From: Nannocystis sp.
GTDB taxonomy: Bacteria > Myxococcota_A > Polyangia > Nannocystales > Nannocystaceae
Assembly: GCA_016712315.1 (NCBI GenBank)
Contig: JADJRG010000022.1
Location: 1,058,522-1,122,521 of the forward strand
DNA: 64,000 bases
Direction: 5' to 3'
Position numbers and translations under genes: made by a program. The notes beneath the pieces are model-generated. The model made no database searches. It saw only the letters and a list, made by a program, of their open reading frames with translations, and had not been told where the DNA came from. Below, one piece after another: positions 1 to 17,598 of this stretch (position 1 is its first letter; the number at the start of each line of letters is the position of its first letter).

Positions 1-261
1 GCCCCGCTGCGCCTACTTCCGCGGCGGAGGAGCGCATGACACTCTTGGAGGCCGCGGTACGCGAGGGACTCGAGGAGATACAACTCCTCCGGGACACTCT
101 GCGTGCGGCACTCGTCGCCGCCGCCGCTCCGACAAATGATCCTCGACCGCAGAATGTCAACGAGCCGCCGCCCCCGCCGCCGCGCCGCCCACACAGCCCT
201 TGATCCAGGAAGAGCTGGTCCTGCTGGCGCCACTCGCCCTCCCAGGAGTAGGCTCCCACCC

Positions 262-1351
262 ATGGCGCCACGGATCCGGCTCCTCCTCGCCTTCGGGCTC
301 GGGCTCGCCTGCCAGCCGACGCAGGGCGAGACGACGTCGTTCGCGTCGGTGCCGACGACGGCACCTCCTCCCTCGGGATCAGACTCCAGCGCGGCGGACA
401 CGAGCGGCGGCAGCGACGGGGGGGCGTCGCAAGGGAGCTCGGGCGGAGGGGCGAGCGACGCGAGCTCGTCCGCGGACCCGAGCGTGGGCACCGGCGACAC
501 GACGCTGCTCTACGACGTCGGCCCCGACACTGACACCGCCACCGGCAGCGACACGAAGCCGGCGGGGTGCGAGGGCAAGATCGACCTGCTCTTTGTCCTC
601 TCGCGCGACGCTTCGATGAAGAGCAGCCAAGAAAAACTGCTCGCGGCGTTTCCCGGCTTCATCGCCACCATCCAGGCGAAGTCGCGGATTTTGACTACCA
701 CATCATGGTCGTCGACGGTGACACCGAGTGGGGCCTGATCACCTGTGACCTGGCTTGCGCGATGGAGGGCTTCTGTGGCGGGGTCCCGGACTACCCTTGC
801 GATCTGCTTCACCTCGTCACCGACTGCGACCGCACGATCGGCGCCGGCAACGTCTTCGCCGCAGGTGGGAACGCGAGCAACAAGCCGTGCCAGATCGCGG
901 GCGGGCGGCGCTACCTGACCAACGAGCAGCCGAACCTCGCCGAGACCTTCGCCTGCGTCGCCAGGCTCGGCGTCAGCGGTCGCGATCTGATGGGCCAAGC
1001 GCTCAGCGCCGCGATGAAGCCGGAGATGAACGCCCCGGGCGGCTGCAACGCCGGCTTCCTCCGTGACGATGCGTTGCTGATGGTCACCTTTCTCGGCGGC
1101 TACGACTACGACTCGAAGGGCAACCCGGATCTGTGGGCAGATCGTGTGCTCTCGGCCAAGGGCGGTGATCCGGGCGCGGTGGTGATGCTGAGCATCCTCA
1201 ACCCCGACTGTCCAGCGCCCGATCGGATCTGCGAGCTCGTCAAAGAAATTCCCGTACCACATGGTTGCGGACGGCAACCTGGACTTCGTTGATGCGTTCG
1301 AGGCCGCGACCGATCTGGTCGCGGAGGCGTGCGCCGAGTTCATCCCGGGCT
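262..1351 (+). pseudogene. Lipoprotein (lipobox signal MAPRIRLLLAFGLGLAC) with S/G/D-rich linker and a VWA/Cys-rich C-terminal region; reading frame breaks twice (near nt 682 and nt 1260)
   Basis: Three consecutive protein-like ORF segments (103..738 frame 1, 567..1292 frame 0, then back to frame 1 ending at the TGA at 1349..1351). The segments join into one continuous polypeptide if 2 nt are skipped at ~682 and 1 nt at ~1260. ATG at 262 is followed by a signal peptide and lipobox. Could be genuine pseudogenisation or sequencing indels. Confidence 0.35.
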
Positions 1352-1361
1352 GAGCACGGGC

Positions 1362-3027
1362 TCAGCCGCCGATGTAAGCGACCGCGGGATACCCGCTGTT
1401 GCCGAGGCCGCCCGCGTACACCTCGCCGAAGGCGCCGATCGCGACGGCGATCGCCATGTGGAAGTTCTTGTTGTCCTCGCGACTGTAGGTCCACAGCGGC
1501 GCCGCTGATCCAGGCTTAAACGCTCGCACCCAGAAGGCGCCTTCGTTGCCCTTGGCCCCGCCCATCACGACGACGGCGTAGCCGGCCGGGCTCCAGGCGA
1601 TGTCATGTGGCCCATAGGACAGGCTCGGCAGATCACCGATCGGCGCGAACCAATCGTCGCCACCCTTCGGATCGTGGACGCGGAGAGTCGCCTTCGGATC
1701 GCAGTCATCGCCGCAGATAAATCCTGCGGTGATGTAGCGCCCTTGCTCGTCGATCGTGAGCGCCCGGCCGCCGGTCTGGGCGTCTCCCTCGATGCCGCCG
1801 ACCTTCCACTTGTGGGCCGTGGTGATCACATCGACCTCGAGGGTGAAGTGGCGGTCTCGCTTGAGTTGTAGGAATTTTTCATGCTTTCCGTTCGCCTCTC
1901 CGACCATCACGAGCGTGTCGCCCGCGAACGCGCAGTCGCGGACGATCTCGGTGAACTTGTGCGGCACCTCGTCGTCCTTTTTGGCCACGTAGTCGAAGGT
2001 CTGCGCTTCGCCGAACTGGTTCGGCCGATAGATCCACGCGGCGGCGTCCCAAGCGTCGGGGTGGCCGCTGGGAGCGGCGCCGCAGACGGCGATCAAGCCG
2101 GAGGGGTGGGCGCCGAGGGCGAGGGCGAGCTCGTCCTTTCCGCCGAGGCCGCGGGGGGTTACGCCAGCGTCCCACGAGCTGAGTTGCCCGAGCCACCACT
2201 CGGTTCCGCCGACACCTGTCCGGTAGGCCAGGAGGTTGATCGCGCCGTCGGCGTCGATCTTCATGTCGATGGGGGCGCAGGTTAACCCGGGCAGCACGCT
2301 GCGGAACGAACTCCATCCGCCCTGGTTGCGACGGCGCAGGTAGCAGCGGCTATCCCCGGCGAGCGTGTCTTGGCCGAACTCAACGGGATCGCCGCTCGGC
2401 AACACGCCGAGCGCCTTGACGATCCCGCTGCCGCTGAGCTCGTTGATCTCCCAAAAGATCTCCTCTCCGGGCGTCGGAAGGTCGATCGTGTAGCTCGTCG
2501 TCACTGCGTCGCCGGCCAGATCGCCGCGCCACGGGGTGAGCTTGAGAAACTGCGTGCCGTTGGCGAGGCCGGTGTTGACGGCGAGCTCGCCCTGAAAAAT
2601 AACGGGGTCCCGATCGTGCTCGAGGTCGGGGTCAAGGGCAGCGAGTTGGATCAAGGATCCATCTTCGAGCTGCATCGATACGCCTTCGGCCCCCTCGGCC
2701 GTGACCGTGACGGTGAGCGGCCCGTTTTTAAAGATGATCGGCCCGGGGGTGAGCTCGTACCCGACAATCCCCGGGGCGGGCAGGGCGCCTTCGGTGTCGT
2801 CGCCGGTGTCGCTAAGCGGATGAGGCGTCGCTGTCGCTGTCGGAGCCGTGAGGCGGCGGTTCGGTCGTGACGGTGCTGATCGGTGGGCTGCTGTTGGCGG
2901 AGTCGTCGCTGCCGCTGTCGCTGTCGCTGTCCTCGGTCGTGTAGTACTCCAGCAGGGTCTCGTACCCGCTCGGGTCGTAGCAGGCGGGCACAAGGGCGAG
3001 GAGGAGGACATGGGCGGGTCGACGCAT
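1362..3027 (-). pseudogene. Secreted lipoprotein (MRRPAHVLLLALVPAC signal) with D/S-rich linker and a large C-terminal domain; single-nucleotide frameshift near nt 2815
   Basis: ATG at 3027 opens a frame with a lipoprotein signal and a TEDSDSDSGSDDS linker that stops at 2812. The long ORF 1362..3011 continues in another frame (…LSDTGDDTEGALPAPGIVGYEL…). Removing one T in GCTTAGC restores one frame reading …SDSDASSASDTGDDTEG…. No family assigned. Confidence 0.4.
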
Positions 3028-3244
3028 GCGGAGATTTCCTGGACGCGCAGCGGTAGGCGCGGTTGCGAGCATGCGCTGATTCGCGCGCGCTAGGCAAGGG
3101 GCGCGCGTGCGACGGCTCGCCGCGAGCACGTTCTGACGCCGAGCACGGAAGCGGTCTCGGTCGTGGCCCCCCGAAGCGGGCCCATCCAACAAGCCCAGGC
3201 GTTGAGCACTGCCGCACCCTCGATCTCAGCGGAGACGTGCACGA

Positions 3245-4507
3245 GATCAGCTCGCCTTGATGCCGACAGGCGTTGAGCACATCTCGCAGGGCGGCAGCTC
3301 AGGCTCGCAGACACCTTCGGATCAGCTCGCCTTGATGCCGACAGGCGTTGAGCACCGCGCGGCGGCCGAGCTACAGGAGATCGCCCGCGAGATCAGCTCG
3401 CCTTGATGCCGACAGGCGTTGAGCACGCCAGCACCGCCCCAACCGATACGGTCCTGGAGCGATCAGCTCGCCTTGATGCCGACAGGCGTTGAGCACAAGA
3501 CGCTAACGATTTTGGGGGTGCTCGCGCTGCTGGGATCAGCTCGCCTTGATGCCGACAGGCGTTGAGCACCAGACCACCTCGCTCACCCTCCCCACCGATC
3601 TCAAGATCAGCTCGCCTTGATGCCGACAGGCGTTGAGCACGAGGAGGCCATGTTCGAGGCGAACTCGCGCATGTGAGATCAGCTCGCCTTGATGCCGACA
3701 GGCGTTGAGCACGCGCGCTTGCCCGGCGTGGAGGCCCTGCTTGCGGTCTGGGATCAGCTCGCCTTGATGCCGACAGGCGTTGAGCACCACCCGAGCCGCG
3801 AGATGTAGTCGGTCCGATCGCCGACCGATCAGCTCGCCTTGATGCCGACAGGCGTTGAGCACGGCGTCGGAGACCACGGCGAGATCTGGGCACATTTGAT
3901 CAGCTCGCCTTGATGCCGACAGGCGTTGAGCACGCCCGCAGCGAGTAGACGGTCGCGACGGCCTGCCCGTGATCAGCTCGCCTTGATGCCGACAGGCGTT
4001 GAGCACTCGTGTCGCTACTCGAGAGCTACGTGCGCGCACCCCCCCGGATCAGCTCGCCTTGATGCCGACAGGCGTTGAGCACTCGACGGCGCTCACCGGC
4101 TGGCCGGTGTAGGCGTGATCAGCTCGCCTTGATGCCGACAGGCGTTGAGCACAGTTCCGCAAGGTCTTCCTCGTCGGCGACTCTGCGATCAGCTCGCCTT
4201 GATGCCGACAGGCGTTGAGCACAGCGCGCGCGGGCCGGGGCCGGCGGAGATCTTGTGATCAGCTCGCCTTGATGCCGACAGGCGTTGAGCACTTGCACGT
4301 CGAGGTGGCCAGGGGTGAGATGAGCCCGATCAGCTCGCCTTGATGCCGACAGGCGTTGAGCACTCTTTCTTGCTCACTTGCGTGAGCCCTTCTGCTTCGT
4401 GATCAGCTCGCCTTGATGCCGACAGGCGTTGAGCACATCGCGGCCTCGCAGAGCTGGTGCAGGCCGAACAGGATCAGCTCGCCTTGATGCCGACAGGCGT
4501 TGAGCAC
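3245..4507 (+). CRISPR. CRISPR array: 18 identical 36-bp direct repeats (GATCAGCTCGCCTTGATGCCGACAGGCGTTGAGCAC) with 17 unique 34-40 bp spacers; degenerate partial repeats at 3174..3209 and 4544..4579
   Basis: Repeat start positions read directly: 3245, 3320, 3391, 3461, 3534, 3605, 3677, 3752, 3827, 3898, 3971, 4047, 4117, 4187, 4257, 4328, 4401, 4472. The repeat contains an internal hairpin (CGCCT-N10-AGGCG) followed by an 8-nt TTGAGCAC tail, resembling a 3'-handle if transcribed left to right. No cas genes in the window. Confidence 0.97.
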
Positions 4508-4708
4508 TCAATCCTCGATAGAGTACCAGGGGCGGGGAAGCGCGATCAGCTCACCGGCAAGAGCGGCACCGGCAAGAGGTCGGACGGATACGATTGCCTT
4601 GGCGACCACCGCTGTCGTGGGTCGCCGCCCTCACCGGCCCGTGACGTATCCGTGCCACACCCGTGCCAAATTCTGCGTACTCAGCCGCACTCACGCGTGA
4701 TCCGCGCG

Positions 4709-4745
4709 AAAAACAAAAAACCCCCTTACGGGGGCTGGGAGGGCT
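4709..4745 (-). terminator. Intrinsic-terminator-like hairpin (CCCCC-TTAC-GGGGG) followed on the minus strand by a TTTTTTGTTTTT tract
   Basis: Plus strand reads AAAAACAAAAAACCCCCTTACGGGGGCT, an A/T tract that is conspicuous in a ~70% GC background. The 5-bp GC stem is short and no minus-strand gene lies immediately to the right, so its function is uncertain. Confidence 0.3.
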
Positions 4746-4807
4746 CAGAACGGCGTCTTTGTTCTGTCTGGTTGGTTTCGCTGCTCGGGTCGGCGGTCTA
4801 CCTCGAC

Positions 4808-6190
4808 ATGATGACGGATCCCGGCACCTCGGGGATCACCGTCACAGGCACCACCACCGGAGACACCACCGGCGAACCCGATCCCTTCTGTGGCGACGGC
4901 GCCGTCGATCCAGGCGAAGAGTGCGACGAAGGGCCCGCCAACGACGACAACGGCGCCTGCACGACCACCTGCAAGCTCCCGATCTGCGGCGACGGCTACG
5001 TCCAAGCCGGCGAGGCGTGCGACGACGGCAACGATGACAACAACGACACCTGCGTCGAGGGCTGCGCCGCCAACGTCTGCGGCGACGGCTTCGTCGGGCC
5101 TGGCGAGGCCTGCGACGATCCTCGGGATCCCTCGTGCACGGACAAGTGCGCCCTCGCCACCTGCGGTGACGGCATCCTGCACCAGGGAGAGGAGTGCGAC
5201 GACGGTAACGGCGACGACGACGACGCCTGCATCAGCACCTGTCTGAACGCCGTGTGCGGCGACGGCCACGTCTACCTCGGCGTCGAGCTCTGCGACGACG
5301 GCGACCAGAACAACGCCAACGGCTGCACCACCCTCTGCGCGCCGCCGGCCTGTGATGATGGGATCAAGAGCGGCCTCGAGACCGACGTCGACTGCGGCGG
5401 CTCGTGCACCGACTGCTCTAAAGGACAGGCGTGTGCCAAGGGCAGCGATTGTGACACTGACGCCTGCGCGGACAACATCTGCGCCTTCGGCCGCCATTGT
5501 CAGGACATCCGCACCTCCTCACCCGAGGCGCCCACCGGCCTCTACACCGTCGACTTCGACGGCGACGGCCCCGAGCCGGAGGCGACCGTCTATTGTGAGA
5601 TGGACACGGACGGCGGTGGTTGGACCCTCCTCCAGCGCACCGTCTGGGACCCCACCAAGACCGCCGCCCTCTTCACCACCTACGCCGACTGGTACGGCAA
5701 GACCGTCGGCGCGCCGACCCCCGGAGAGGGCTACCGCCTCGCTGGCAAGTTTTGGAGCGACATCACCGTCGGCAAGCGTCACATGCTCGTCCACCGCGTC
5801 CGCAAGGCCCAGAGCGGCGAGTCCTGCGGCCCGCTCGCCTACGTCGGCACCGACGGCACGTTCTCGATCAACCAGAGCAGCGCCACCCTCACGGGCCTCC
5901 AGGCGACCGTGAACATGATCAACAACACCCTCCTCTCGACGACCAACAGCGGCCCCAGCACCTCCTGTATCAACGCCAACGGCGGCGTCCCGTGGTTCTA
6001 CTCGAGCTGCTGCACCACCTGCCCAACCTTCGCCGGCTCCTACTGGGCCCAGCCGCATCCCATGGCCAGCTACACCGCCGGGACCCCTGACTACTTTAAC
6101 AAGACCAGCCAAGACGTCTGCGACGGGGCCGCCGCGATCATCTCCAACGGCTACTACGGGATCAACGACATGGGCTACTTCGCCCGCTGA
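4808..6190 (+). CDS. Secreted protein with myxobacterial cysteine-rich repeats (CGDGxxxxGExCDDGN, about 7 copies) and a C-terminal fibrinogen-related domain (FReD)
   Basis: ORF 4457..6190 trimmed to ATG 4808, because the upstream part overlaps the CRISPR array; an alternative TTG lies at 4772. Repeats such as [24 protein letters not shown] occur several times. The C-terminus ([21 protein letters not shown]…YADWYGK…AGKFWSDIT) matches the fibrinogen C-terminal globular-domain signature (YCDM..DGGGWTV.QRR…W..YK.GFG…FWLGN). Confidence 0.8.
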
Positions 6191-6453
6191 TCGTCGGCGC
6201 ACGAGCGCGCGGGCGCTTATCACAGGGCACCCGCGCGTGAAGCTCGATCTCATGAGATCTGACACTTCATCACTCCTGAGCAATCGGCCTTGTCCGGAAG
6301 CAAGTCTTCTTGAGCTTGTCGTCGCGACTCGCCCCGAATATGTTCCGATCCAGGCGCCGATGTGGCGTCGATTCCCCGGGGACAGCGAGGCCTGCGCCGA
6401 GATCGGGGCCTGCGATTTATCGCTGGCCTCGGGGGTCAGCACGTGACCTCGCC

Positions 6454-6918
6454 ATGACCCTTCACGCATCCTCCTGGGGCTCTTACGAGCTCGACGACTC
6501 CTGGACCGACGATACAGCGCACGTACTCCGGCGCGCTGGCGCGGACGGCTCGATCGAGACCTTGGTCGTGCACCGCGATCCTGGAGGCGCGGGCTCGACG
6601 GCCATGGAGTACGCCGAGAAGCAAAAGCTGCTGCTCGCGAGCCTTCCAGGTTTCGTGCTGCAGCACTCGTTGCCCTGCCAGTTGGACGGGATCGAGGCGC
6701 ATGAGCTCGCCTTCGCCTGGACCACGCCGAACGGCCCAATCGAGCAGGTACAGATCCAGGTGCCCGGACCAGACGGAATGGTCATGTTCACATCGACCGG
6801 CGCGCCGCGCCTCACGCCGGGTGGACGCGACGCGCTCAAGCGAGCGCTGCTCAGCGCGCTCATCCCCCCAACCCCGTCAACCCTGGATCGATATGCCCCT
6901 GGCAGCGAGACTCGGTGA
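6454..6918 (+). CDS. Small protein encoded directly upstream of, and overlapping, the prePAAR effector; candidate Eag-family (DUF1795-like) effector chaperone
   Basis: ATG at 6454 within ORF 6310..6918, about 154 aa, overlapping the next start by 26 nt. Its size, position and the pattern SYELDDSWTDDT…TLVVHRD…MEYAEKQ…LPGFVL…LDG are consistent with DUF1795/EagR-like chaperones, which characteristically precede prePAAR effectors. The family call rests on context and loose similarity. Confidence 0.4.
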   Translation: MTLHASSWGSYELDDSWTDDTAHVLRRAGADGSIETLVVHRDPGGAGSTAMEYAEKQKLLLASLPGFVLQHSLPCQLDGIEAHELAFAWTTPNGPIEQVQIQVPGPDGMVMFTSTGAPRLTPGGRDALKRALLSALIPPTPSTLDRYAPGSETR

Positions 6919-8302
6919 TCCGGTCGGCCATGACTTCGACTTCGAGGGCTTCGGGGCGCAGCTCGGCGCGTCCTTCGGCGCGGCGCTCGGGGCGGCCGCC
7001 GTGAGCGAGGTGGCGACGCGCGGAAGTATCGTCGTCACCGGCATCGGGTTCGTGGCTGGTGGGCTCGTCGGCGGCTATCTCGCGGGCCGAGCGGCCGAAA
7101 GAGCGCGAGGTCTCGTGATCAGTGAGGCGCGCCAGGCCGGCGCATGGCTGGGCGAGAAGATGGGTCGAAGCATCGGCGCCTGGCTCGAAGAGCACCTTGG
7201 GAGCTTCAAGGTCACGACCGGCGCGATCGTGGTGGGAGACTTCACTGTGCTCATTGAATCGATGCCCGCAGCCCGCTCATGCGTCGACTTCGCGGCGTGC
7301 TCAGATCACCCCACTACGATTCCCCCCGCGATTATCAAGGGGAGCGAGACCGTGCGGATTGGCCGGCAACCCGCGGCACGGGTCGGGGACACGGGGGCCT
7401 GCACCTTCGAGATCCTATCCGGCGCGCGGACTGTATATGTCGGCGGGGCCTCACACTTGTGCGCATGCGCGGCGCTGTGGAAGAAGTACCAGGACGAGGC
7501 CGAGGCGATCATCGTTCCCCACGACGATGACCCCCGCGCCCGCAATCGAGCGATCAGCGCCGCCTACGCAGATCTTTACCTCAACAACCCAGACTTCGTG
7601 TGGGCTGGTCTCGCAGCATATGCGAGCAAGCAGGTCGGATGCGCGATGGACAGCGCCACCCACGCGATCGACGTGGGTGGCAAGCTCGTGGGCGCCGGGA
7701 CGCCAGCCGCGCTGGTGTCGCCTCTTTCTGGCCTCGGGTTGGCAGGATACGGCCTCGGCGCCGCAGGTGCCGCCGCGTACACCCGTGACATGCTCGGGAA
7801 GGGCAACCGAGACCTTTTCATGGACATCTACCCGATTCACCGCTTCTACCAGGAGGAGGGCTTCGAACGAATGAAGGCCTGCGCAGGCGCCCGAACGCCG
7901 CCGCTCGAGCCCGAGGCCCTCGCCGGCTTCGAGGCGTTGACGCGCGGCGATCGCCGTGAGAGCTTGCGGCAGATCGCGTTTCACGAGCAGATCAATGTGC
8001 TCCAACCCTTGATCTACGATGATTACCTGTTGCGCAAGATCCTCGTCGCTAACGAGACTGGCGCCCCGCTGACCAGCCCGGCGAAGCTGGTGCTCGGCAG
8101 CGGGTGCGAGGACGGCCCGACGACCCACTTCAGCCGCGGATGGTTCAACAGCGGCAGTCAGGGAGACGTGCCTGAGCTATATGACGCGAGCGAGCGCATG
8201 AACTGGATTCTTCAGGACGCGACGCCCCTGTACGAAGAAGTGTTAGGCACCGAGAAGCACCTCGAGGATCTGGAGCAGATCAAGGACCAGGCGCCACCAT
8301 GA
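6893..8302 (+). CDS. T6SS-type prePAAR effector: N-terminal prePAAR motif (AARLGDPVGH = AARxxDxxxH), Gly-rich transmembrane region, PAAR domain (two PAAR motifs), C-terminal ~270-aa domain of unknown function (putative toxin)
   Basis: ATG 6893 in ORF 6701..8302, with N-terminus MPLAARLGDPVGHDFDF. The hydrophobic GASFGAALGAAAVSEVATRGSIVVTGIGFVAGGLVGGYLAG stretch precedes …ESMPAARSCVDFAACSDH…RIGRQPAARVGDTGAC…, the PAAR spike-tip family. The C-terminal domain (from about WKKYQDEAEAIIVPHDDDP to the end) could not be assigned. The stop overlaps the start of the next gene (ATGA). Confidence 0.75.
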   Translation: MPLAARLGDPVGHDFDFEGFGAQLGASFGAALGAAAVSEVATRGSIVVTGIGFVAGGLVGGYLAGRAAERARGLVISEARQAGAWLGEKMGRSIGAWLEEHLGSFKVTTGAIVVGDFTVLIESMPAARSCVDFAACSDHPTTIPPAIIKGSETVRIGRQPAARVGDTGACTFEILSGARTVYVGGASHLCACAALWKKYQDEAEAIIVPHDDDPRARNRAISAAYADLYLNNPDFVWAGLAAYASKQVGCAMDSATHAIDVGGKLVGAGTPAALVSPLSGLGLAGYGLGAAGAAAYTRDMLGKGNRDLFMDIYPIHRFYQEEGFERMKACAGARTPPLEPEALAGFEALTRGDRRESLRQIAFHEQINVLQPLIYDDYLLRKILVANETGAPLTSPAKLVLGSGCEDGPTTHFSRGWFNSGSQGDVPELYDASERMNWILQDATPLYEEVLGTEKHLEDLEQIKDQAPP

Positions 8303-8844
8303 TCAAGTCCTCGTATCCTCGCGTCGTCGCGGCGCCGCAGATGCCCCTCAGCGAGGTCATGGCGCGCTCGTCCGCGCAGATGAGCGTCCCTCGGGCGACG
8401 GGCGGGCTGTGCGCGGCGCAGCCGCTGCAGCCTCATGCATTCGAGATCGGCGACGCCAACGTCGGCCTTCGCCTCGACCCCGGCTGTTTCACCCTGCTAG
8501 GGCTCCTCGACGCCACTGTCGTGAGCATTCGCGTCTCACCTCAGCTCGACTACGTCGACGCGTACGCTGGCGCTGCGTTGCTCGAGCGCTGCGCCGCCCT
8601 GCTCGACGCCGCGACCTGGGAGCGTGACGGCTTGTTCTCCGCGGAACAAGCGCGCGTCACAGCCACCATCACCGGAGAGGCCCTCGCCGGGACCTGGCAC
8701 GCCCGTACCTGGACAACGCAGCTCCGGCTTCGACGCGTCCACACAGCCGCGGGCTCACCTGCTCTGGCGCTCGGAAAGCATCACGATCTCTTTCTCGTGA
8801 CCCTGTCCGTGAGCGGCGCTCACTCGGGCTGCCGAGCGCCGTAA
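8299..8844 (+). CDS. Candidate cognate immunity protein, translationally coupled to the PAAR effector
   Basis: The ATG at 8299 overlaps the effector TGA (ATGA), 181 aa, no recognisable domain. The assignment rests purely on the effector-immunity gene-pair architecture. Confidence 0.45.
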   Translation: MIKSSYPRVVAAPQMPLSEVMARSSAQMSVPRATGGLCAAQPLQPHAFEIGDANVGLRLDPGCFTLLGLLDATVVSIRVSPQLDYVDAYAGAALLERCAALLDAATWERDGLFSAEQARVTATITGEALAGTWHARTWTTQLRLRRVHTAAGSPALALGKHHDLFLVTLSVSGAHSGCRAP

Positions 8845-8863
8845 ACCCCGTATGCAGTCGCGC

Positions 8864-10345
8864 TCACTGCGGCAGGATCGCGCTCTTGATCTGCCCGCCG
8901 GTCATATCTGAGTACGTGTAGTGCTGGTTCGCGATCGGCACGAATTGCTTCGCGTTCGGGTTCAGCGGATCGATCTTCCACGCCCCCTCCCACTCGTCCA
9001 CCACCCAGACGTAGCCCTCGAGGTCGACGCTGATCCCGACCGGCGTCGAGCACGGGTTCAACTGGTGCACTTGCACCACCGTCGCCGAGTCCGCGTCGAT
9101 CTGCATCACCGCGCACTCGAAGTTCATCGCCGTCCAGATGAAGCCCTCCTTGTCCGCGCCGATCCCGCGGAAGCAGTCGTTCGTCCCCGGCACCGCCGCG
9201 AAGCTCTCGGTCATCGGGTCGAAGCGGTACACCGGCCCGGCGCAGCCCGCCGTCCACGCTCGGCCCTTCGCGTCGACCGTCATGCCGTAGAACTGGCTGT
9301 CGCCGGGCGACGTGTACTCCTTCAGCGCGTTGTTGTTCTTCGTCTCGATCTTGTACAAGTTGCCGCGCAGCCCGGTGAACCACACCTGCTCCTTCGAGTC
9401 GAGCGCCGCCCCGTACGGCCCCCACCAGTTGTCGCCGACCGACCAATTGTTCAGCTCCACTGTCTGCTCGATCGCACCTGTCCCACCGTTCAGCTTCGCC
9501 ATGTGAGCCACCCCCCAGCTCGGCCGGTAGCCCACCCACACCTTCGGGTTGATGAACGAGCAGCTGTCTTGGTCCCAGTCGCCTGGCGTCCACGTCACAC
9601 CGCGCGGCCCCGCGCCGTTCTCGCCGTCGTAGGGCAGCACGATCGACCAGAGCGTGCACTCCTCTTGCCCCCACGCCCGCAGATCGTTCGGGCTCGTCGA
9701 CGTGTCGATCATCCCGTTGTTGTTCAGGTCCTTGCAGTCCTCTGGGTCCGCCGCGATCGCCGTCACCCGCCCGGTCTCGCGGTTGTTCACCACCACGAAG
9801 CGTCCGTCCACGCTCACCGCCGTCCGCGAAGGGTCCTCGAAGCCCGGCCCGCTGCGGTAGCGCGCCAGCTCCTTCATCGTTTGAGTGTCGACCTTCGCGA
9901 TGCTCGACTCGTCCGTGTTCGCCACCCACAGGAAGCTCTTCTCCACGTCGCCCATGCCCATGCCGTCGCCTGGCATACACGGCTCGACCCCTGTGTCCTC
10001 GGTCGTCGTCCCGTCGCTCGTCCCTTCGCTCGTCCCCTCCGTCGTCCCCTCCGTCGTCGCCGCCGTCGTCGCGTCGGTCGTCGACGTACCCGCGCTCGTG
10101 CTCGTCACGCCGTCCGTCGTCGTCCCGGCGCTCGAGCTCGCGTCGCTCTCCGAGCCTGATCCGTCGCTCTCCGAGGCGCTGCTCGACGAAGAGCTCCCTG
10201 AGCTGCTCGACGTCGACGACGACGACGACGTCGACGTATCGTTCGTCGTGCCCGCCGTCTCTGAAGCGGAGGAGGTGCTGTCATCGCCGCAAGCCGCGGC
10301 CACAAGCGAGAGCGTCGATGCGAGGATCCAAGGGCGTGTACGCAT
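8864..10345 (-). CDS. Lipoprotein with long S/T-rich linker and a C-terminal beta-propeller-like repeat domain
   Basis: ORF 8864..10348, with ATG at 10345 giving MRTRPWILASTLSLVAAAC (lipobox). The linker is rich in S/T/D. The C-terminal region carries repeated VDxxGxxWxxxxxG-type blades. Repeat family uncertain. Confidence 0.7.
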   Translation of the reverse strand: MRTRPWILASTLSLVAAACGDDSTSSASETAGTTNDTSTSSSSSTSSSSGSSSSSSASESDGSGSESDASSSAGTTTDGVTSTSAGTSTTDATTAATTEGTTEGTSEGTSDGTTTEDTGVEPCMPGDGMGMGDVEKSFLWVANTDESSIAKVDTQTMKELARYRSGPGFEDPSRTAVSVDGRFVVVNNRETGRVTAIAADPEDCKDLNNNGMIDTSTSPNDLRAWGQEECTLWSIVLPYDGENGAGPRGVTWTPGDWDQDSCSFINPKVWVGYRPSWGVAHMAKLNGGTGAIEQTVELNNWSVGDNWWGPYGAALDSKEQVWFTGLRGNLYKIETKNNNALKEYTSPGDSQFYGMTVDAKGRAWTAGCAGPVYRFDPMTESFAAVPGTNDCFRGIGADKEGFIWTAMNFECAVMQIDADSATVVQVHQLNPCSTPVGISVDLEGYVWVVDEWEGAWKIDPLNPNAKQFVPIANQHYTYSDMTGGQIKSAILPQ

Positions 10346-10438
10346 CACAACCCGATAACACGAAGCTGCGCCGACCGCACTCGCGTCGCCGCGCCGCTCC
10401 GGCGCGCCCCGAGCAGATCCGCGCCGAGCCAGCCGCCT

Positions 10439-12244
10439 TCAGCTCAGCGCGTAGCCGCGCGCCTGCTTGCGGAACATCGCCGCGTAGAGGCCATCCGCGG
10501 CCATCAGCGCCTCATGGCTGCCCGACTCGGCCACGCCGCTCGCCTCGAGCACGACGATCCGGTCGGCCATCCGCACATTGGCGAATCGATGCGAGATCAG
10601 CAGCAACGTGCGCCCGCGCGCCAGCGCACGCACCCGCGAGAACACCTCGCCCTCGGCGTCGATGTCGAGCGCCGCGGTCGGCTCGTCGAGGATCAAGACG
10701 TCGGCATCTTCGCGCATAAACGCCCGCGCCAGGCTGATCCGCTGCCACTCGCCGCCAGAGAGCTCGACCCCGCCTTGAAACCACCGACCGAGCTGCGTGT
10801 GGATCCCCGCCGGCAACCCCGCCACCACCTCCGTCGCGCCGCCATTGGCCACCGCCGCCGCGATCCGCCCCTCATCTTCGACGCGCGCCGGATCGCCGAA
10901 GCCGACGTTCTCGCGCGCGCTGAGCTGGTACTGGTTGAAGTCCTGAAACACCACCGCGAGCCGGCGACGCAGCTCCTCGCGCGGCAGCGTCCGCAGGTCG
11001 CGGCCATCGAGCAGGATCCGCCCCTCGGTCGGCTCGTAGAGGCCGGCCAGCAGCTTGATGAAGGTCGACTTACCGGCGCCGTTGTGGCCGACCAGCGCGA
11101 CCGTCTCGCCGCGGGCGATCTGCAGATCGATGTTACGGAGCGCGAACACCGATTGATCGGGGTAACGAAAGCCCACCCCTTCGAAGCGGATCCCCGACTC
11201 CTCGCGCTCCGGGGCCGCGGCCAGCATCAGCGGCGCCTGCCCCCTCGAGATCGCCAGGAAGCTCAGCAGGTTCGACATATAGAGGTCGTGCTCATAGAGG
11301 CCGCCGACCGCCATCAAGATCCCCTGAAACGACCCCTGCCCCTGGCGAAACGCGAACGCGTACATTGTCATATCGCCGAGGCCGAGCGCCCCCGACGCCG
11401 CCTGCACCGCGATATATGCATAACAGCCGTAGAAAGACAGCGTCCCGAGCTGCGACAACAGGGCCACCCACCGCATCCGCCGGAGCGCCAGCGCACGCTC
11501 CTCGACCCACAGCTTCTCGCTCACCCCTTCATAACGCTCCAGCAGCGTCGGCGCGAGGCCCAACATCATCACCTCTTTGGCGTGCTCATCGCTCGCGAGC
11601 ACGTACTCGAGGTAGCCGAGCAGGCGGGCGTCGGTCGCCCGACGGTTACGCAGATCGAAGGCCGCCCTTGAGAAGCGCACCTCGGCGAGCGCCGCGGGGA
11701 TCGCCGCGACCAGCAGCAGCAGCACCGCCGCCGCGCTGTAGCTGAAGAGCAGCGCCGCGAAGCCGACGAAGGTCAGCGTCGCGCTGGCGAGCCCGAGCAG
11801 CTCCGACGCGACCGCCAGCGGCCGATGGCCCGCCTCACGCCGCGCCCGCGTCAGTTGGTCGTAGAACTCCGGGTCCTGAAAGTCGCGCAGCTCGAGCGTC
11901 TGCGTCTTGCGCAGGATCTCGAGGTTGACCGCGAGCCCGAGGCGCACCCCCAGCAGCGCCCGCAGCATGCTCCCGCCGCGGCTCGCGGTCATCATCAGCG
12001 CCGCCAGCATCATCTCGACCAGCACCCAGGTCAGCGCGAGCTCGACGTCCGCCGCGACCACCGCGTCGACGATCGCCTTGCCGACCCACGCCATCGCGAT
12101 CGGCGTCGCCGCCGCGACCGCGAGCACGCCGATCCACAGCGACGCCGTCGCCGGCGAGCTGCGCCAGGCCATCCGCACCGCCGTGGCCCCGCGCCCGAGC
12201 CGCGCCCGCAGGCCGCCTCCGTCGATCGGCGTCGCCTCACGCAT
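10439..12244 (-). CDS. ABC transporter, fused permease/ATP-binding protein (exporter family); probable export component of the adjacent graspetide cluster
   Basis: 601 aa, with an N-terminal TMD of six predicted helices. The C-terminal NBD has Walker A GHNGAGKST, signature LSGGEWQRISLARAF and Walker B ILDEPTAALD. Stop is 12 nt from the start of the ATP-grasp gene. Confidence 0.9.
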   Translation of the reverse strand: MREATPIDGGGLRARLGRGATAVRMAWRSSPATASLWIGVLAVAAATPIAMAWVGKAIVDAVVAADVELALTWVLVEMMLAALMMTASRGGSMLRALLGVRLGLAVNLEILRKTQTLELRDFQDPEFYDQLTRARREAGHRPLAVASELLGLASATLTFVGFAALLFSYSAAAVLLLLVAAIPAALAEVRFSRAAFDLRNRRATDARLLGYLEYVLASDEHAKEVMMLGLAPTLLERYEGVSEKLWVEERALALRRMRWVALLSQLGTLSFYGCYAYIAVQAASGALGLGDMTMYAFAFRQGQGSFQGILMAVGGLYEHDLYMSNLLSFLAISRGQAPLMLAAAPEREESGIRFEGVGFRYPDQSVFALRNIDLQIARGETVALVGHNGAGKSTFIKLLAGLYEPTEGRILLDGRDLRTLPREELRRRLAVVFQDFNQYQLSARENVGFGDPARVEDEGRIAAAVANGGATEVVAGLPAGIHTQLGRWFQGGVELSGGEWQRISLARAFMREDADVLILDEPTAALDIDAEGEVFSRVRALARGRTLLLISHRFANVRMADRIVVLEASGVAESGSHEALMAADGLYAAMFRKQARGYALS

Positions 12245-12256
12245 CAGCGAGGAGCC

Positions 12257-13273
12257 CTACGCGCGGAGCGTCCGCCGCGCCCCCGGCTCGCCGAGCAGCA
12301 CGTCCGCGAGCGCCTCGGAGAGGGGAAAATTCGGCGAATTGTACTGTAGCCAGAAGCACTCGCCGGCCGGGTTCGCCTCGAGGAACACGTGGCGCCCGCT
12401 CGGCTCGACGATCATGTCGATCGCGCTGTACTGCATCTCGATCCGCTCCATGTAGCGCTCGATCGCCCGCTCGATCTCCGCCGGCAAGGTATAGCCGATC
12501 CACGACTGTAGCAGCGTCACCCCGCGCTCACGCCAGTCGATCTCCGCGCCACTGGTCCGCTGCGAGTCGACCGCCGCCGTGAAGATCCGCCCGCCGATCA
12601 CCGTGATCCGCAGCTCCAGCGCCTTCTCCACCTTCTCTTGAAACACCATCGGCGAGTAGCGCAGGCCGTCCAGCTTGCCCAGGTGCTCGCGCGACAGCGC
12701 CGTCGTGAAGACCACCTGCTCGACCCCCTGCTCGTCGATGATCGGGAACGCCGACAGCATCTTCGCCACCACCCCGTGCGGGCACGACTCGATGAACGCG
12801 CGCGCCTCCGCCGGATCGTTCGTCATCAGCGTCCGCGGGGTCGCCATCCCCAGCTCCCGCGCGAGCCGCAATTGAAACGGCTTATGCCCGCGCGCGCGCA
12901 CCCGCTCTGGCGGGTCGAGCACGAACCCCGGCGCCGCCGCCATCAGCCCGAAGAGCAGCGCCTTCGACTCGGTGACGCAGCCGTGGCGGAGCTGCTTGTC
13001 CATCGACATCGGCAGCCGCTCGGCGATCCGCGCGCGGCGGTACCAGATCGCGTCCTCCGGGCCCACCCGCAGCTCCTCCGCGCCGCAGCGAAATCGCAGC
13101 GCCTCGCCGTCGTCGTCGAGCGCCAGCGACGCGTGCGCCTCCATCGGGAAGCGATCCGTATCAAAGCGCATGACCTCGGCCCCGCGCCGCTCCAGCAGCC
13201 CGCGCAGCTCCTTGAGCATCCCGGTGATGTCCTCCGAGTGCGTCACCATCACGACCTTCTTCTTCGTCTTCAT
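12257..13273 (-). CDS. ATP-grasp ligase, microviridin MdnB/MdnC-like (graspetide macrocyclase)
   Basis: 338 aa, MKTKKKVVMVTHSEDITG…, of the same family as the adjacent ORF. The start overlaps the upstream stop (ATGA at 13270-13273). Belongs to a precursor–grasp–grasp–ABC operon on the minus strand. Confidence 0.8.
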   Translation of the reverse strand: MKTKKKVVMVTHSEDITGMLKELRGLLERRGAEVMRFDTDRFPMEAHASLALDDDGEALRFRCGAEELRVGPEDAIWYRRARIAERLPMSMDKQLRHGCVTESKALLFGLMAAAPGFVLDPPERVRARGHKPFQLRLARELGMATPRTLMTNDPAEARAFIESCPHGVVAKMLSAFPIIDEQGVEQVVFTTALSREHLGKLDGLRYSPMVFQEKVEKALELRITVIGGRIFTAAVDSQRTSGAEIDWRERGVTLLQSWIGYTLPAEIERAIERYMERIEMQYSAIDMIVEPSGRHVFLEANPAGECFWLQYNSPNFPLSEALADVLLGEPGARRTLRA

Positions 13274-14253
13274 CGCTCGCTCCTCTCACGCAGCTTCGCT
13301 CGCGCCAGCCCGAGCAGGGCCTGCGCGATGGCCTCACCGATCGGCAGGCCGAGGTCTCGCTCCAACATCCCCCACTCGCCGTGGGGGTTGACTTCAAGGA
13401 ACACGTAGTCGCCGCTCGGCGTGACGATCATGTCGATCGCCCCCTGTCGCAGCCCGAGCTGGCGCATCAACGCCGCGAGGCGCTCGTGCACCGCCGTCGG
13501 CAGCGCGTGCGCCTCCCAGCTCGCCGTCGACTCGTGGCGCCAGTCGACGCCGCATCGGGCCCCGTCGAGGCCGCCGACCAGCGCGCGGCCGTCCACCCAG
13601 GCGATCCTCAGCTCCATGGCCTTTGGGACATATCGCTGGAACATCATCGGGCAGTGGCGCAACCCGCCGAGCGCCTCTAGATCTGCGGGCCCGATCATCC
13701 GGGTCGGCAAGCCGCCGCCGCCCGCCATCGAGTAGCCGAGCGACGTCTGCAGCTTCGCCACCACCTGCCCGTCGTGCGCGCCCCAGAAGCGCCGCGCCGC
13801 CGCCGGATCGGCGGTGATCAGCGTCGGCGGGATCGCCAGCCCCAGCCCCTGCGCCAGCCGGAGCTGACGCGCCTTGTTCTCGGCGCACCGATTCGCGTCG
13901 ATCCCGTCGATCCACGGCGCGTCGTCGAGCAGGTCCAGCAGCCCGCGCAGCGCCGTCATCGACTCGCGCAGCGCCGCCTCGCGGTGAGGCGCGGCGAGGC
14001 CCGCGTCTAGGCGCGGCGGCCACAGCCGCCACAGCCACACCGCGTCGACCGTCAGCGCCTCCCCGTCGAGCAGCAGCCGCCCGCCCGCCGCAGGGTCGAG
14101 CTCGCCGCTCAGCGCGAGCGCGAGCGGGAAATCGTCCGTATCGAGCCGCAGCGGCCGCGCGCCGGCCCGCAAAAGGGCGCCCGCGACCCTCTCGGTGCAG
14201 AATGGCTCCTGGCTGTGCGTGAGCAGCAGGACGCAGGGTTGTTCGCGCATCAT
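13270..14253 (-). CDS. ATP-grasp ligase, microviridin MdnC/MdnB-like (graspetide macrocyclase)
   Basis: 327 aa, MMREQPCVLLLTHSQEPF…, paralogous to 12257..13273. Lies immediately downstream (36-nt gap) of the precursor peptide gene. Confidence 0.8.
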   Translation of the reverse strand: MMREQPCVLLLTHSQEPFCTERVAGALLRAGARPLRLDTDDFPLALALSGELDPAAGGRLLLDGEALTVDAVWLWRLWPPRLDAGLAAPHREAALRESMTALRGLLDLLDDAPWIDGIDANRCAENKARQLRLAQGLGLAIPPTLITADPAAARRFWGAHDGQVVAKLQTSLGYSMAGGGGLPTRMIGPADLEALGGLRHCPMMFQRYVPKAMELRIAWVDGRALVGGLDGARCGVDWRHESTASWEAHALPTAVHERLAALMRQLGLRQGAIDMIVTPSGDYVFLEVNPHGEWGMLERDLGLPIGEAIAQALLGLARAKLRERSER

Positions 14254-14289
14254 GTCACCTCAAGAGAGATCGGGGGCGCCCGGCTCACC

Positions 14290-14493
14290 TTACCCGTCGC
14301 TGTCTTTGAACCAGGTCGTCGACTCGTCGTCGTCGCTCGGGTACTTCTTCGTGCACGGCGAGTCGAGGCAGTGGTACGTGGGCGCACCGCCGCCGTTGGT
14401 GCTCTGCGCCGGGTCGCTCTGCGACGTCAGGAGGTGCGCGAAGAAGGGCAGGTCAGCCCCTTCGCTCTGTGGATCCATGATTTTCTTCGACAT
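14290..14493 (-). CDS. Graspetide (microviridin-class) precursor peptide, 67 aa: leader with PFFAHLL recognition motif, core TKKYPSDDDE
   Basis: MSKKIMDPQSEGADLPFFAHLLTSQSDPAQSTNGGGAPTYHCLDSPCTKKYPSDDDESTTWFKDSDG. The leader motif matches the conserved microviridin PFFARFL. The core matches T-x-K-Y-P-S-D-x-(D/E)-(D/E), with the residues that form the T1-D7 and S6-D9 esters and the K3-E10 amide. There is an AGGA ribosome-binding site 7 nt upstream of the ATG. It is the C-terminal third of ORF 14290..14721. Confidence 0.75.
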   Translation of the reverse strand: MSKKIMDPQSEGADLPFFAHLLTSQSDPAQSTNGGGAPTYHCLDSPCTKKYPSDDDESTTWFKDSDG

Positions 14494-14628
14494 TGTTCGT
14501 CCTTCTCTCTTACTTCCCCACGTGGAGGGCACAATCGCCCGCCACAACTTGACGGAGCGCCCCACGCGTAACCAACAGGCCACGCGCGTAGGAGCGCCCC
14601 GACACCCTTCCAAAAGAGTGAAGAGCGT

Positions 14629-14655
14629 CGATCCGCGCGTCGCCGGCGCGGATCG
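14629..14655 (-). promoter_or_regulatory. Perfect 10-bp GC-rich inverted repeat (CGATCCGCGC-N7-GCGCGGATCG) between the 14796..15119 gene and the precursor gene; possible terminator, attenuator or operator
   Basis: Read directly from sequence. On the minus strand it is followed by a moderately U-rich stretch (ACGCUCUUCACUCUUUUGG). Confidence 0.25.
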
Positions 14656-14795
14656 GGGCCCATGACTCGCCCGCCCCTCGTGCCCGCACCATACGCCCAA
14701 GCTGTCGCTCCCCGACCCCACCTGGATCTAACAGCGCACATACGCGCGGCGACGGCCCCTACCGCGCGCCCGGCGATTGAGCCGCCGCCGCGCCC

Positions 14796-15119
14796 TCAGC
14801 CCTCTTGCTCGCCGATCATCTCCTCGCCGCTGAGGATGCTGCCCCAGTTGTTGGCGTCGTTGAAGGTGAGGCTGAGCGGCTTCTCGTAGCGCAGCGTCCC
14901 GATCACCTCGCCGAAGCGCGCCTCGTGGAAGCGCAGGTACAGCGCGCCGTTCGCGATCTTCTGGCTCGGCGGCGCCGTGAACCCGTCGCGATAGAAGTAG
15001 AGCGTGCCGCGGTGCGTCCTGCCCTCGAAGCAGTTGATGACCGCGGTCAGGCCGTTCGTGGTGTCGAGGGTGTTGTGAAACACCGAGTAGCGGTCGATCG
15101 TGTAGTTGGTGGTAGCCAT
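14796..15119 (-). CDS. Hypothetical small protein (107 aa) with N/Y/T/F-rich composition atypical for the locus
   Basis: ORF MATTNYTIDRYSVFHNTLDTTNGLTAVINCFEGRTHRGTLYFYRDGF… has no out-of-frame-type low complexity. Immediately upstream of the graspetide operon on the same strand. Confidence 0.5.
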   Translation of the reverse strand: MATTNYTIDRYSVFHNTLDTTNGLTAVINCFEGRTHRGTLYFYRDGFTAPPSQKIANGALYLRFHEARFGEVIGTLRYEKPLSLTFNDANNWGSILSGEEMIGEQEG

Positions 15120-15255
15120 CGCCGCGATCCTGGCGCAGACCGCAGAGGGCCGTCAAACCGGCGGCCTCATACCGCTCAAGGGCGCAAAAAAGAGCGGACC
15201 GCTGGGGCCCGCTCTCGTGTTTGTTCTTGTTGCAACTTTGAGCGGCGAGCGCCGC

Positions 15256-16545
15256 TCAGCGCATCGTCGGCTCATCGCGGCGCCGCAGGAACGCTGGGAT
15301 CTCGCTCGGATCCGCCGCCGCCTCGCTGCGCGCCCACCGATCGGCCGCTGGCGCCTCACGCGTCGGCCGCGCCGCCGCCGCCTCGCGTGCATACGCCCCC
15401 GAGCTCTGCGACCCGCCGAGCAGCGCCGCCGCCTGCGCCCCGCGCACCGCGCTGGCCGCGGACGTCGCCCGCGCCGACGGACCACCAGGCACCTGCACCT
15501 GGATCACCCCGCCGCTCGCGCTCTGGCGGCGGCGACCTTGGTGGCTGCGGATCACCTGCTCCAGCTCCTCTTCGGCTGGCGCGTGGCGATCGAAGCCGGT
15601 CGCGATCACCGTCAGCCGCAGCATATCGCCCATATTCGGGTCGATCACCGCGCCGAAGATGATGTTGCAGTCCTCGTGCGCCGCCTCTTGGATCAGCGAA
15701 GCCGCCTCCTCCACCTCGTGCAGGCGCAGGTCGGGGCCGGCCGTAATGTTGATCAGGATCCCTTGAGCCCCGTGGATCGTCACGTCCTCGAGCAGCGGCG
15801 ACGAGATCGCCTGCTGCGCCGCGGCCAGCGCCCGCCCCTCGTCGGACGCGATCCCCATGCCCATCAACGCCCGCCCTTGGCCCGACATGATCGTGCGCAC
15901 GTCCGCGAAGTCGACGTTGATGATCCCCGGCACTGTGATCAGGTCGGACACCCCTTGCGTCGCGTGCTGCAGCACCTCGTCCGCGAGGCGGAACGAGTCG
16001 AGCAAGCTCGTGTTCGCCGAGGTCACTGACAGCAGCCGATCGTTCGGGATCGTGATCAGCGTGTCGACCGCCTTCTCCAGCTTCTCGATCCCCATCTCCG
16101 CGAAGCGCATCCGCCTCCGGCCTTCGAAGCGGAACGGCTTCGTCACCACGCCCACCGTCAGCGCCCCGAGCTCGCGGGCCACCTGCGCGATGATCGGCGC
16201 CGCCCCCGTGCCCGTGCCGCCGCCCATACCACCTGTCACAAAGACCATGTCTGCGCCTTGCAGCGCCTCCGCGATCGCGTCGATGCTCTCGAGCGCCGCC
16301 TCGCGCCCCTTCTCCGGGTTCGCGCCGGCGCCCAGGCCGCGCGTGATCTCCTTGCCGAGCTGGATCGTGATCCCGGCCAAGCTCTTCTCGAGCGCCTGCA
16401 CATCGGTGTTGGCGACGATGAACTCGACCCCCTCCACCTTGTTATTGATCATCGTATTGACGGCGTTGCCGCCCGCGCCTCCCACGCCGATCACCTTGAT
16501 CTTGGCGGCTGGGGGCAGAGATTCGTCGAGGTCGAAGTACGCCAT
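15256..16545 (-). CDS. ftsZ: Cell division GTPase FtsZ
   Basis: MAYFDLDE…[15 protein letters not shown]…[13 protein letters not shown]…, the full tubulin/FtsZ signature with a C-terminal variable tail. An AT-richer promoter-like region lies upstream (16546..16810). Confidence 0.95.
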
Positions 16546-16814
16546 AGCTGGGTTCCCTTGCTTGCTTGCTCGCTGCTCAGGCGAGGAGTTGCTCCACGCG
16601 TGCCCTTATCTGAGGCGATCTCGCGAGGCAAAAAACTTGGGATTTTAAGAGATCCGCCCGGCCAAAACGCCTACCTTATCCTACACTGTAGGCAACGCCA
16701 AATTCCCTCACACAACCCCTAGAACCCGCCTCTACAGGCCAATTCCTGCCCATCCTCGCAGGAGCACGCCTCCGCGCCAACGCTCTGGCGCCGCGAGCCG
16801 TTGATCTGCCTCGG

Positions 16815-17585: not shown

Positions 17586-17598
17586 CCGCCCTCCCCCC

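Follow-up and report, generated by a model that had tools for sequence, protein, structure and literature searches.

A type I-B Myxan CRISPR array fragment between two rearrangement junctions in Nannocystis sp., probably a decaying orphan remnant

A 64,000-nucleotide (nt) stretch of a Nannocystis sp. genome (the window; assembly GCA_016712315.1, contig JADJRG010000022.1, positions 1,058,522 to 1,122,521 of the forward strand) carries near its left end an array of clustered regularly interspaced short palindromic repeats (CRISPR) with 18 identical repeats. Two rearrangement junctions enclose the array fragment, which spans 1.6 kb at positions 3197–4801. Sequence comparison assigns the repeat to the known type I-B Myxan family, in which it is unexceptional, and the window displays no CRISPR-associated (cas) genes. 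What is left of this type I-B Myxan array is 5′-truncated and leaderless, and it is probably a decaying orphan remnant.

The 36-nt sequence GATCAGCTCGCCTTGATGCCGACAGGCGTTGAGCAC is present in 18 exact copies on the + strand at positions 3245–4507, where the chance expectation is 0 (no copy is found in shuffled sequence). Measured from start to start, the repeats are 70–76 nt apart. There are 19 spacers of 34–40 nt, including two that are bounded by partial repeats, and no 12-mer is common to any two of them. Near-identical direct repeats of 23–55 nt with unique spacers of similar length, the general signature of a CRISPR array, are both present, and an earlier sequence-only reading of this locus as a genuine array is borne out. 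That reading also described degenerate repeats at both ends. This holds for the right end, where positions 4545–4580 represent a decayed terminal repeat: GATCAGCTCACCG (4545–4557) is identical at 12 of 13 positions to the first 13 nt of the repeat, and the last 23 nt match the repeat at chance level (6/23). The array of locus L139 (loci fetched for comparison are given L numbers) and those of Leptospira end in the same way. It does not hold for the left end, which was placed at 3174–3209. A clean fragment of the 3′ end of the repeat, AGGCGTTGAGCAC, is found there at 3197–3209 (13 nt, or 14 nt with C3196), and the preceding 22 nt match the repeat at chance level (5/22). What had been read as a degenerate repeat on the left is the junction at which a repeat was truncated.

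The features of the region are as follows.

223–3196, no strand assigned: conserved block A with two divergent lipoprotein genes (homology to L005–L008)
~259–1292, + strand: vWA-like lipoprotein gene (intact orthologues have 360–364 amino acids, aa)
~1362–3027, − strand: lipoprotein gene of a 552-aa family (intact orthologues have 552–554 aa)
3197–3209, + strand: left junction, 3′ 13 nt of the repeat (from the sequence and the L007/L005 alignment)
3210–3244, + strand: first retained spacer, 35 nt (spacer comparison)
3245–4507, + strand: array core, 18 identical 36-nt repeats and 17 unique spacers of 34–40 nt
4508–4544, + strand: last spacer, 37 nt (spacer comparison)
4545–4580, + strand: terminal (trailer-end) repeat remnant (from the sequence; polarity of decay as in L139 and Leptospira)
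4581–4801, no strand assigned: trailer flank, 221 nt, without homology to close relatives (comparison with relatives)
4802–6190, + strand: start of block B, DUF4215/Fibrinogen_C gene (homology to L162–L165; Pfam)
6238–8856, + strand: cassette of a DcrB-like gene, a PAAR+DUF2515 toxin gene and a 181-aa putative immunity gene (Pfam; comparison with L162–L165)

The left breakpoint is inside a repeat, at 3196/3197. Window positions 223–3196 display 93% identity to L005–L008, which are Joint Genome Institute (JGI) metagenome contigs from Nannocystis-like relatives; no repeat of the window’s family was found in these contigs. The homology of block A ends at 3146 (L005, L006) or at 3196 (L007, L008). 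In the L007/L005 alignment it runs to ...CCAACAAGCCC and stops exactly where AGGCGTTGAGCAC begins. Positions 3030–3173, which had been proposed as the leader, are conserved DNA upstream of the lipoprotein gene and are 93% identical in relatives that have no array. The leaders of L155, L135, L150 and L140 share an end motif, gaaaaag...gcgaagg, that is followed by a complete repeat. This motif is not found on either strand of positions 2900–4900, and no sigma-70-like promoter was found in this segment. A leader of the I-MYXAN type (NCBIfam name), i.e. ~250–300 nt after cas2 leading into a complete first repeat, is absent.

Both lipoprotein genes of block A are frameshifted, as had been noticed from the sequence: relative to intact orthologues in two sets of relatives, 1-bp indels at 684, 1244 and 2813 break them. 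The indels could be real pseudogenization or residual assembly errors from Oxford Nanopore Technologies (ONT) reads. The 552-aa lipoprotein family has many paralogues in the same metagenome-assembled genome (MAG) (IPK80_16150, IPK80_28535, IPK80_30155, IPK80_14870). To the left of block A, the window begins with 222 nt that show no homology to the relatives; they hold the 3′ end of a + strand open reading frame (ORF).

The right breakpoint is at 4801/4802, inside the neighbouring gene. Loci L162–L165 are 98% identical to the window over positions 4802–6237 and 8857–22252. The orthologue of the DUF4215/Fibrinogen_C protein in these loci has 540 aa, and residues 112–577 of the window protein align to its residues 75–540 (BLASTP). 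The window gene is without the native first ~75 codons, which comprise the start codon, signal peptide and Thr-rich linker, and the 221 nt that follow the array stand in their place. These 221 nt include a terminator-like element on the − strand (4736–4710) that consists of a strong hairpin and a T-run, without a − strand gene upstream of it. The hairpin has no gene to terminate. The trailer flank is most simply explained as a relic of the array’s original locus. With respect to the DUF4215 gene itself (Cys-rich repeat; 4697–6190, +), a fortuitous in-frame extension from a GTG at 4697 supplies a hydrophobic stretch, and the N-terminally altered gene could either have kept or have lost its expression and the export of its product.

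The immediate right flank had been described as a toxin module of the type VI secretion system kind. A PAAR-DUF2515 module is indeed present, with the toxin gene at 6701–8302 and the 181-aa putative immunity gene at 8299–8844 (+), but the immediate right neighbour of the array is the DUF4215/Fibrinogen_C gene. The cassette at 6238–8856 is an insertion when compared with the 98%-identical L162–L165, where ~100 nt stand at this place. It is not part of the CRISPR element; it shows local flux.

The 3′ 22 nt of the repeat, GATGCCGnnAGGCGTTGAGCAC, match the type I-B “Myxan” (I-MYXAN) repeat family, with a difference in two loop bases. Over the entire length, 25–34 of 36 positions agree with repeats whose arrays adjoin I-MYXAN cas genes, and with the I-B repeat of Leptospira. 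The length of 36 nt, the core sequence, the hairpin with a GNNA loop and the GAGCAC tail are all as in I-MYXAN repeats, and the unit length of 70–76 nt compares with 69–77 nt in related arrays. The subtype I-B repeat of Leptospira interrogans reads CTGAATATAACTTTGATGCCGTTAGGCGTTGAGCAC; RT-PCR showed which orientation is the sense one, and cleavage by recombinant LinCas6 yields 71-nt CRISPR RNAs (crRNAs) (PMC9372919). The same Leptospira repeats have been tabulated with the Myxan system (PMC4758666). The I-B Myxan Cascade of Synechocystis 6714 holds a ~71-nt crRNA and prefers an AYG protospacer-adjacent motif (PAM) (PMC11096372). Comparison of repeats, which had been suggested as a means to assign a type, gives type I-B Myxan, and the repeat is not the unusual one it was taken for. 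A repeat that is unusual to the eye can be a textbook member of its family. The repeat end was also read as a handle of the Cas6e/Cas5d type. The cas genes that accompany related arrays are those of I-MYXAN; processing would be expected from Cas6/Cmx6 (Cas6b) rather than from Cas6e or Cas5d.

Related arrays were recovered by pattern searches. A scan of viral contigs for three copies of GTTGAGCAC at CRISPR spacing yielded two large arrays, L131, with 39 copies of GTTCCTCTACCTTAGATGCCGTAAGGCGTTGAGCAC, and L135, with 54 copies of GTGCTGACCTCTCCGATGCCGCAAGGCGTTGAGCAC. Both have 36-nt repeats with a period of 69–75 nt, and both contain the window’s 3′ 22 nt except for two loop bases. For these two arrays only GTTGAGCAC was required, whereas the metagenome and other search patterns fixed part of the core GATGCCGnnAGGCGTTGAGCAC. 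The metagenome scan with CCTTGATGCCGNNAGGCGTTGAGCAC gave 19 loci, with repeats of the form GTCnnnCTCGCCTTGATGCCGnnAGGCGTTGAGCAC. The exact 36-mer was not found in the metagenome contig collection, and the pattern GCTCGCCTN10AGGCGTTGAGCAC gave only three single chance matches, inside genes, in 185,579 genomes. A search of viral contigs for three copies of TTGAGCAC matched more than 120 collagen-like Gly-X-Y repeats; it became specific when the preceding G was added. The closest repeat is that of L152 (34/36 identical to the window), with no cas gene in view there.

Several of the related arrays adjoin cas genes. In L155 (repeat 30/36) the order is cas7(DevR), cas5, a cas4-cas1 fusion, cas2, a 253-nt leader and the array. 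Here cas5 (Cmx5/DevS) scores 119 bits against a cutoff of 111.5, and cas1_MYXAN scores 447 bits against a cutoff of 358, with only 220 bits for cas1_DVULG. In L135 the C-terminal half of Cas1 matches TIGR03983 cas1_MYXAN (1.6e-88) and is followed by cas2, with the array downstream on the same strand; L131 likewise has cas2 upstream of the array on the same strand. In both, cas2 is ~250–300 nt upstream, on the strand where the repeat reads ...GTTGAGCAC. L144 shows cas6_cmx6 (6.8e-60), cas3, Cas8a1/Cmx1, DevR and DevS, and then the array. L150 (repeat 32/36) and L140 have cas1_MYXAN C-termini upstream of the array.

Some observations on these loci may be added. In L144 (1539–10430) the interference module cas6-cas3-cas8-cas7-cas5 stands directly before the array, with no cas4, cas1 or cas2 and with a ParB-like gene upstream; this system may be plasmid-borne and without an adaptation module. 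L131 (IMG/VR uncultivated viral genome 2509276030) has six successive + strand genes (220, 1106, 181, 399, 630 and 537 aa) at the trailer end of the array, at positions 85–9557, and the first four overlap in an operon-like manner. No significant Pfam, NCBIfam or PADLOC match was found for the six, and the 537-aa protein gave only a weak, sub-threshold DUF4957 match. The trailer-side proteins of L131 and L135 were considered as novel effectors. They have no family match, and cas1 and cas2 are on the leader side; thus they were set down as neighbours. L148 and L157 (WBZL/WBZM metagenome contigs) have 2–3 copies of a repeat of the same family, GTCGACCTCGCC..., with one interval that is unusually long, ~190 nt. 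These adjoin an IS5/DUF4096-like transposase ORF, with no cas genes in view, and are further orphan mini-arrays of the family in high-GC genomes.

The orientation of the array can be read from these relatives. In the intact loci, cas1, cas2 and the leader are upstream of an array whose repeat reads ...GTTGAGCAC. The + strand RNA of the window repeat is predicted to fold as GAUGCC-GACA-GGCGUU with −12.4 kcal/mol, versus −9.7 for the − strand. Across the repeat family only the two middle loop bases vary. The stem is invariant, and there is for this reason no covariation evidence for the hairpin; the invariance is partly imposed by the search patterns. In L139 the 5′ 22 nt of the terminal repeat are retained and the 3′ end is lost, and the Leptospira terminal repeat variants likewise decay at the 3′ end (PMC9372919). 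On the evidence of homologous loci and of the hairpin fold, transcription would proceed from left to right, in the ...GTTGAGCAC direction, and the relatives confirm the sequence-only reading on this point. The cut site and the handle of ~8 nt, UUGAGCAC, are likewise predictions.

Other CRISPR types were considered and rejected. Type I-E arrays have a repeat of ~28–29 nt, spacers of ~32–33 nt and a period of ~61 nt, with cas3-cse1-cse2-cas7-cas5-cas6e-cas1-cas2 adjacent; the window has a 36-nt repeat and a 70–76-nt period, and tblastn with the L007 proteins detected no I-E genes. Type I-C arrays, which are processed by Cas5d, have a ~32-nt repeat ending ...ATTGAAAC and adjacent cas5d-cas8c-cas7. 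The window repeat differs in length and at its 3′ end, and Cas1 of related arrays matches cas1_MYXAN far above cas1_DVULG. The GCAC end brought type V-B (Cas12b) into consideration, with its 36-nt repeat ending ...GCAC, cas12b and a tracrRNA anti-repeat nearby; no anti-repeat or other repeat-like match was found in the window, and the relatives adjoin I-MYXAN genes. The length of 36 nt with variable spacers had also raised the idea of type III. The type V-B and type III ideas were both dropped because the homologous arrays proved to be I-MYXAN.

The spacers were compared with phage and plasmid sequences, as had been suggested, and with the window itself. BLAST of the whole array against plasmid and phage collections gave chance-level matches only (E 0.1–0.4), and five seed-style spacer patterns had no match in IMG/VR. 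The 19 spacers have no credible match elsewhere in the window or in the fetched loci. With no credible protospacer in these collections, in IMG/VR (five spacers), in the window or in the loci, the array provides no PAM evidence.

The absence of cas genes from the window, also stated in the earlier reading, was examined in two ways. Scans of the ORFs of all 64 kb with Pfam, NCBIfam and PADLOC gave no Cas family match. Six-frame tblastn of the window with the I-MYXAN Cas proteins of L144 and L155 and the I-E Cas proteins of L007 gave a best E-value of 0.002, and matches at this level are short and of low complexity. None of the adjacent genes expected for I-MYXAN (cas6/cmx6, cas3, cas8, devR, devS, cas4, cas1_MYXAN, cas2) is found in the 64 kb, and no cas pseudogene was detected there. 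Family membership is given by the repeat; as a locus, this does not qualify as a I-B Myxan CRISPR-Cas system. Orphan arrays are those without cas genes within 10 kb on each side; here there is none over 59 kb to the right, and the view to the left covers only 3.2 kb.

The site itself is variable among relatives. L007 (1–8918) and L008 have a complete type I-E operon (cas3, cse1, cse2, cas7, cas5, cas6e, cas1, cas2) at the equivalent position, and it reads away from the lipoprotein gene. At the equivalent site L005 has an integrase/DUF4096 gene and uncharacterized proteins of 810 aa and 522 aa. Since relatives hold a type I-E operon or an integrase island on the same side of the lipoprotein gene, the site is a variable defence hot spot, and it illustrates CRISPR-Cas turnover at such a spot in Nannocystaceae from activated sludge.

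The origin of the fragment can be proposed as follows. An intact I-B Myxan locus has the order cas6(cmx6)-cas3-cas8-cas7(devR)-cas5(devS)-cas4/cas1-cas2, a leader of ~250–300 nt and the array. Its precursor crRNA runs in the ...GTTGAGCAC direction, and Cas6b, bound to the conserved hairpin (U)GCC-GNNA-GGC(G), cleaves at the 3′ base of this hairpin to give ~71-nt crRNAs. These are loaded into a Cas8b-Cas7b7-Cas5b-Cas6b-Cas11b3 Cascade, with Cas3 recruited to AYG-flanked DNA targets. In the window, a deletion or recombination with its breakpoint in a repeat at 3196/3197 may have taken the cas operon together with the leader and the repeats next to it, and a second breakpoint at 4801/4802 would have cut into the neighbouring gene. 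Left over would be the 18 repeats with 19 spacers, a terminal repeat that had decayed naturally, and 221 nt of the old trailer flank. Because there is no leader and no complete first repeat, spacers cannot be taken up by the normal route, and the description of the array as active or recently active is not supported. The fragment, without a dedicated promoter, could serve as immune memory only with read-through transcription and a I-B Myxan Cas6 and Cascade encoded elsewhere; at present it is presumably inactive. Local decay is seen in the frameshifts, in the truncated DUF4215 gene and in the inserted toxin cassette.

Some points weigh against the interpretation as a decaying remnant. The 18 repeats are still identical, which fits a recent loss but fits equally an array kept in use. 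The left view is only 3.2 kb, and a cognate cas locus is possible elsewhere in the MAG. Comparison of L162 and L163 with L005–L008 by blastn and tblastx did not show blocks A and B as neighbours in any relative, and the event may have been either a deletion in situ or the arrival of a moved fragment. Finally, the junctions rest on an ONT-based assembly only. The MAG, whose GenBank entries MBK82646xx (locus tag IPK80) match the window’s proteins exactly, was built from ONT reads with Illumina polishing, from activated sludge of the Fredericia wastewater treatment plant, and a Logan contig from the Illumina data (SRR11674035) that is 100% identical to window positions 5378–13477 starts to the right of both junctions.

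An orphan remnant and an array served in trans were the two options named in the earlier reading, and these are still the two live ones. If a complete I-B Myxan cas locus with a compatible repeat were present elsewhere in the genome, the array could function for interference: a transcript from read-through or from a fortuitous promoter would be processed by Cas6b and would provide 19 extra guides. The perfect conservation of the 18 repeats and the intact predicted Cas6-binding hairpin are in agreement with this, I-B Myxan Cas7 homologues are found in Nannocystis and other Myxococcota (P0174, P0185, P0198, P0253), and service of orphan arrays by remote cas loci is a recognized possibility (PMC9372919, discussion). 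However, the array has no leader, promoter-like site or complete first repeat, both flanks are rearranged with decayed genes and, as a weaker point, none of the best 120 Cas7/DevR homologues (67–100% identity to the L155 protein) is labelled as coming from the same MAG. Function in trans is considered unlikely. A more specific form of it appears more doubtful still, namely that the leaderless I-B Myxan array is kept as a fixed, non-updatable bank of 19 guides, with a read-through transcript processed by a distant cas locus. If true, this would be a memory outliving its adaptation machinery at a hot spot where relatives swapped in type I-E.

Two further explanations are very improbable. An ordinary array could have its cas operon just beyond the left edge of the window, given that the left view is 3.2 kb and that its first 222 nt have no homology to the relatives and hold the 3′ end of a + strand ORF. 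But every intact relative has cas2 within ~250–300 nt of a complete first repeat, and in the window two unrelated lipoprotein genes lie in between, along with a truncated repeat; positions 223–3196 are shared with contigs that lack such an array, and even with a cas operon at that distance the array would be without a leader. There is just as little to be expected from an assembly artefact, in which chimeric joining would have placed an array segment from another strain or organism between two pieces of Nannocystis DNA. In its favour, the sequence comes from a MAG of polished ONT reads of activated sludge, both junctions coincide with the loss of homology to close relatives, no short-read contig across either junction was found, and the 1-bp indels of the left block could be residual ONT errors. 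The fragment of 1.6 kb is, however, well inside the length of single ONT reads, the G+C content (0.66–0.67) does not change at either junction, the repeat variant belongs with those of high-GC, Myxococcota-like genomes, and two chimeras would have to arise independently within 1.6 kb, one with its mis-join exactly inside a repeat and the other inside a gene. The decaying orphan remnant is the preferred reading, and the cause of its orphanhood is directly visible in the two breakpoints, one within a repeat and one within the gene next to the array. The meaning of the result is mostly one of annotation: the repeat can be assigned to I-B Myxan, the + strand given as the orientation of the array, and the locus annotated as an orphan fragment without a leader. 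Nothing at the locus departs from known CRISPR biology.

Elsewhere in the window, an anti-phage pair similar to PARIS is found at 37976–40239 (+), directly after ftsA in a cell-division cluster. Its first gene encodes an AAA_21/AAA_15 ATPase of 455 aa and its second a DUF4435 protein of 299 aa, with PADLOC matches to AriA (2.4e-19) and AriB (6.4e-14). The 90% cluster of the DUF4435 protein includes JGI metagenome sequences; thus relatives carry a DUF4435 gene too. Positions 10439–15152 (−), beside ftsZ and conserved in relatives, encode two MvdD-type ATP-grasp ligases and an ABC exporter, with small upstream ORFs, and look like a microviridin-like cluster for a ribosomally synthesized and post-translationally modified peptide. 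The 867-aa product of a gene at 30702–33305 (−) is similar to bacterial vault proteins; it has a shoulder domain of the Major Vault Protein, Vault_3 repeats and a weak Band_7 match.

Comparison with known systems shows where the fragment belongs. The Leptospira interrogans arrays LIC_Cr2 and LA_Cr6-12 (PMC9372919, PMC4758666) have the same repeat length of 36 nt, a unit of ~71 nt and the same sense orientation; 25 of 36 positions of the repeat are identical to the window, and 22 of 24 in the 3′ part TTGATGCCGnnAGGCGTTGAGCAC. Their terminal repeats also decay at the 3′ end, and Leptospira genomes carry many orphan arrays as well. The window differs in the GC-rich 5′ third of its repeat, GATCAGCTCGCC, in having no adjacent cas operon and no leader, and in its truncated first repeat. 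The I-MYXAN loci L155, L144, L135, L150 and L140 are similar in repeat (25–32/36), in period (69–77 nt) and in orientation relative to cas1-cas2-leader; they carry cas6/cmx6, cas3, cas8, devR, devS, cas4-cas1, cas2 and a motif-bearing leader, none of which is in the window. In the Cascade of Synechocystis sp. PCC 6714 (PMC11096372) a 71-nt crRNA with a 35-nt spacer has its 5′ handle held by Cas5b and its 3′ hairpin by Cas6b. The 34–40-nt spacers of the window would fit this I-B Myxan complex, although the window is without effector genes. The type I-E loci L007 and L008 lie on the same side of the lipoprotein gene, and their cas operon points away from this gene, as does the array of the window. 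From type I-E arrays in general (repeats of ~29 nt, period ~61 nt) the window array differs in its 36-nt repeat, its 70–76-nt period and its repeat family, and tblastn shows no I-E remnants. Isolated or orphan arrays have been described as a class (Zhang and Ye 2017, cited in PMC9372919). The window array resembles this class in that, on the side that can be seen, no cas gene lies within 10 kb of it, and it is unlike the class in general in that the origin of its orphanhood is visible, in the form of two breakpoints.

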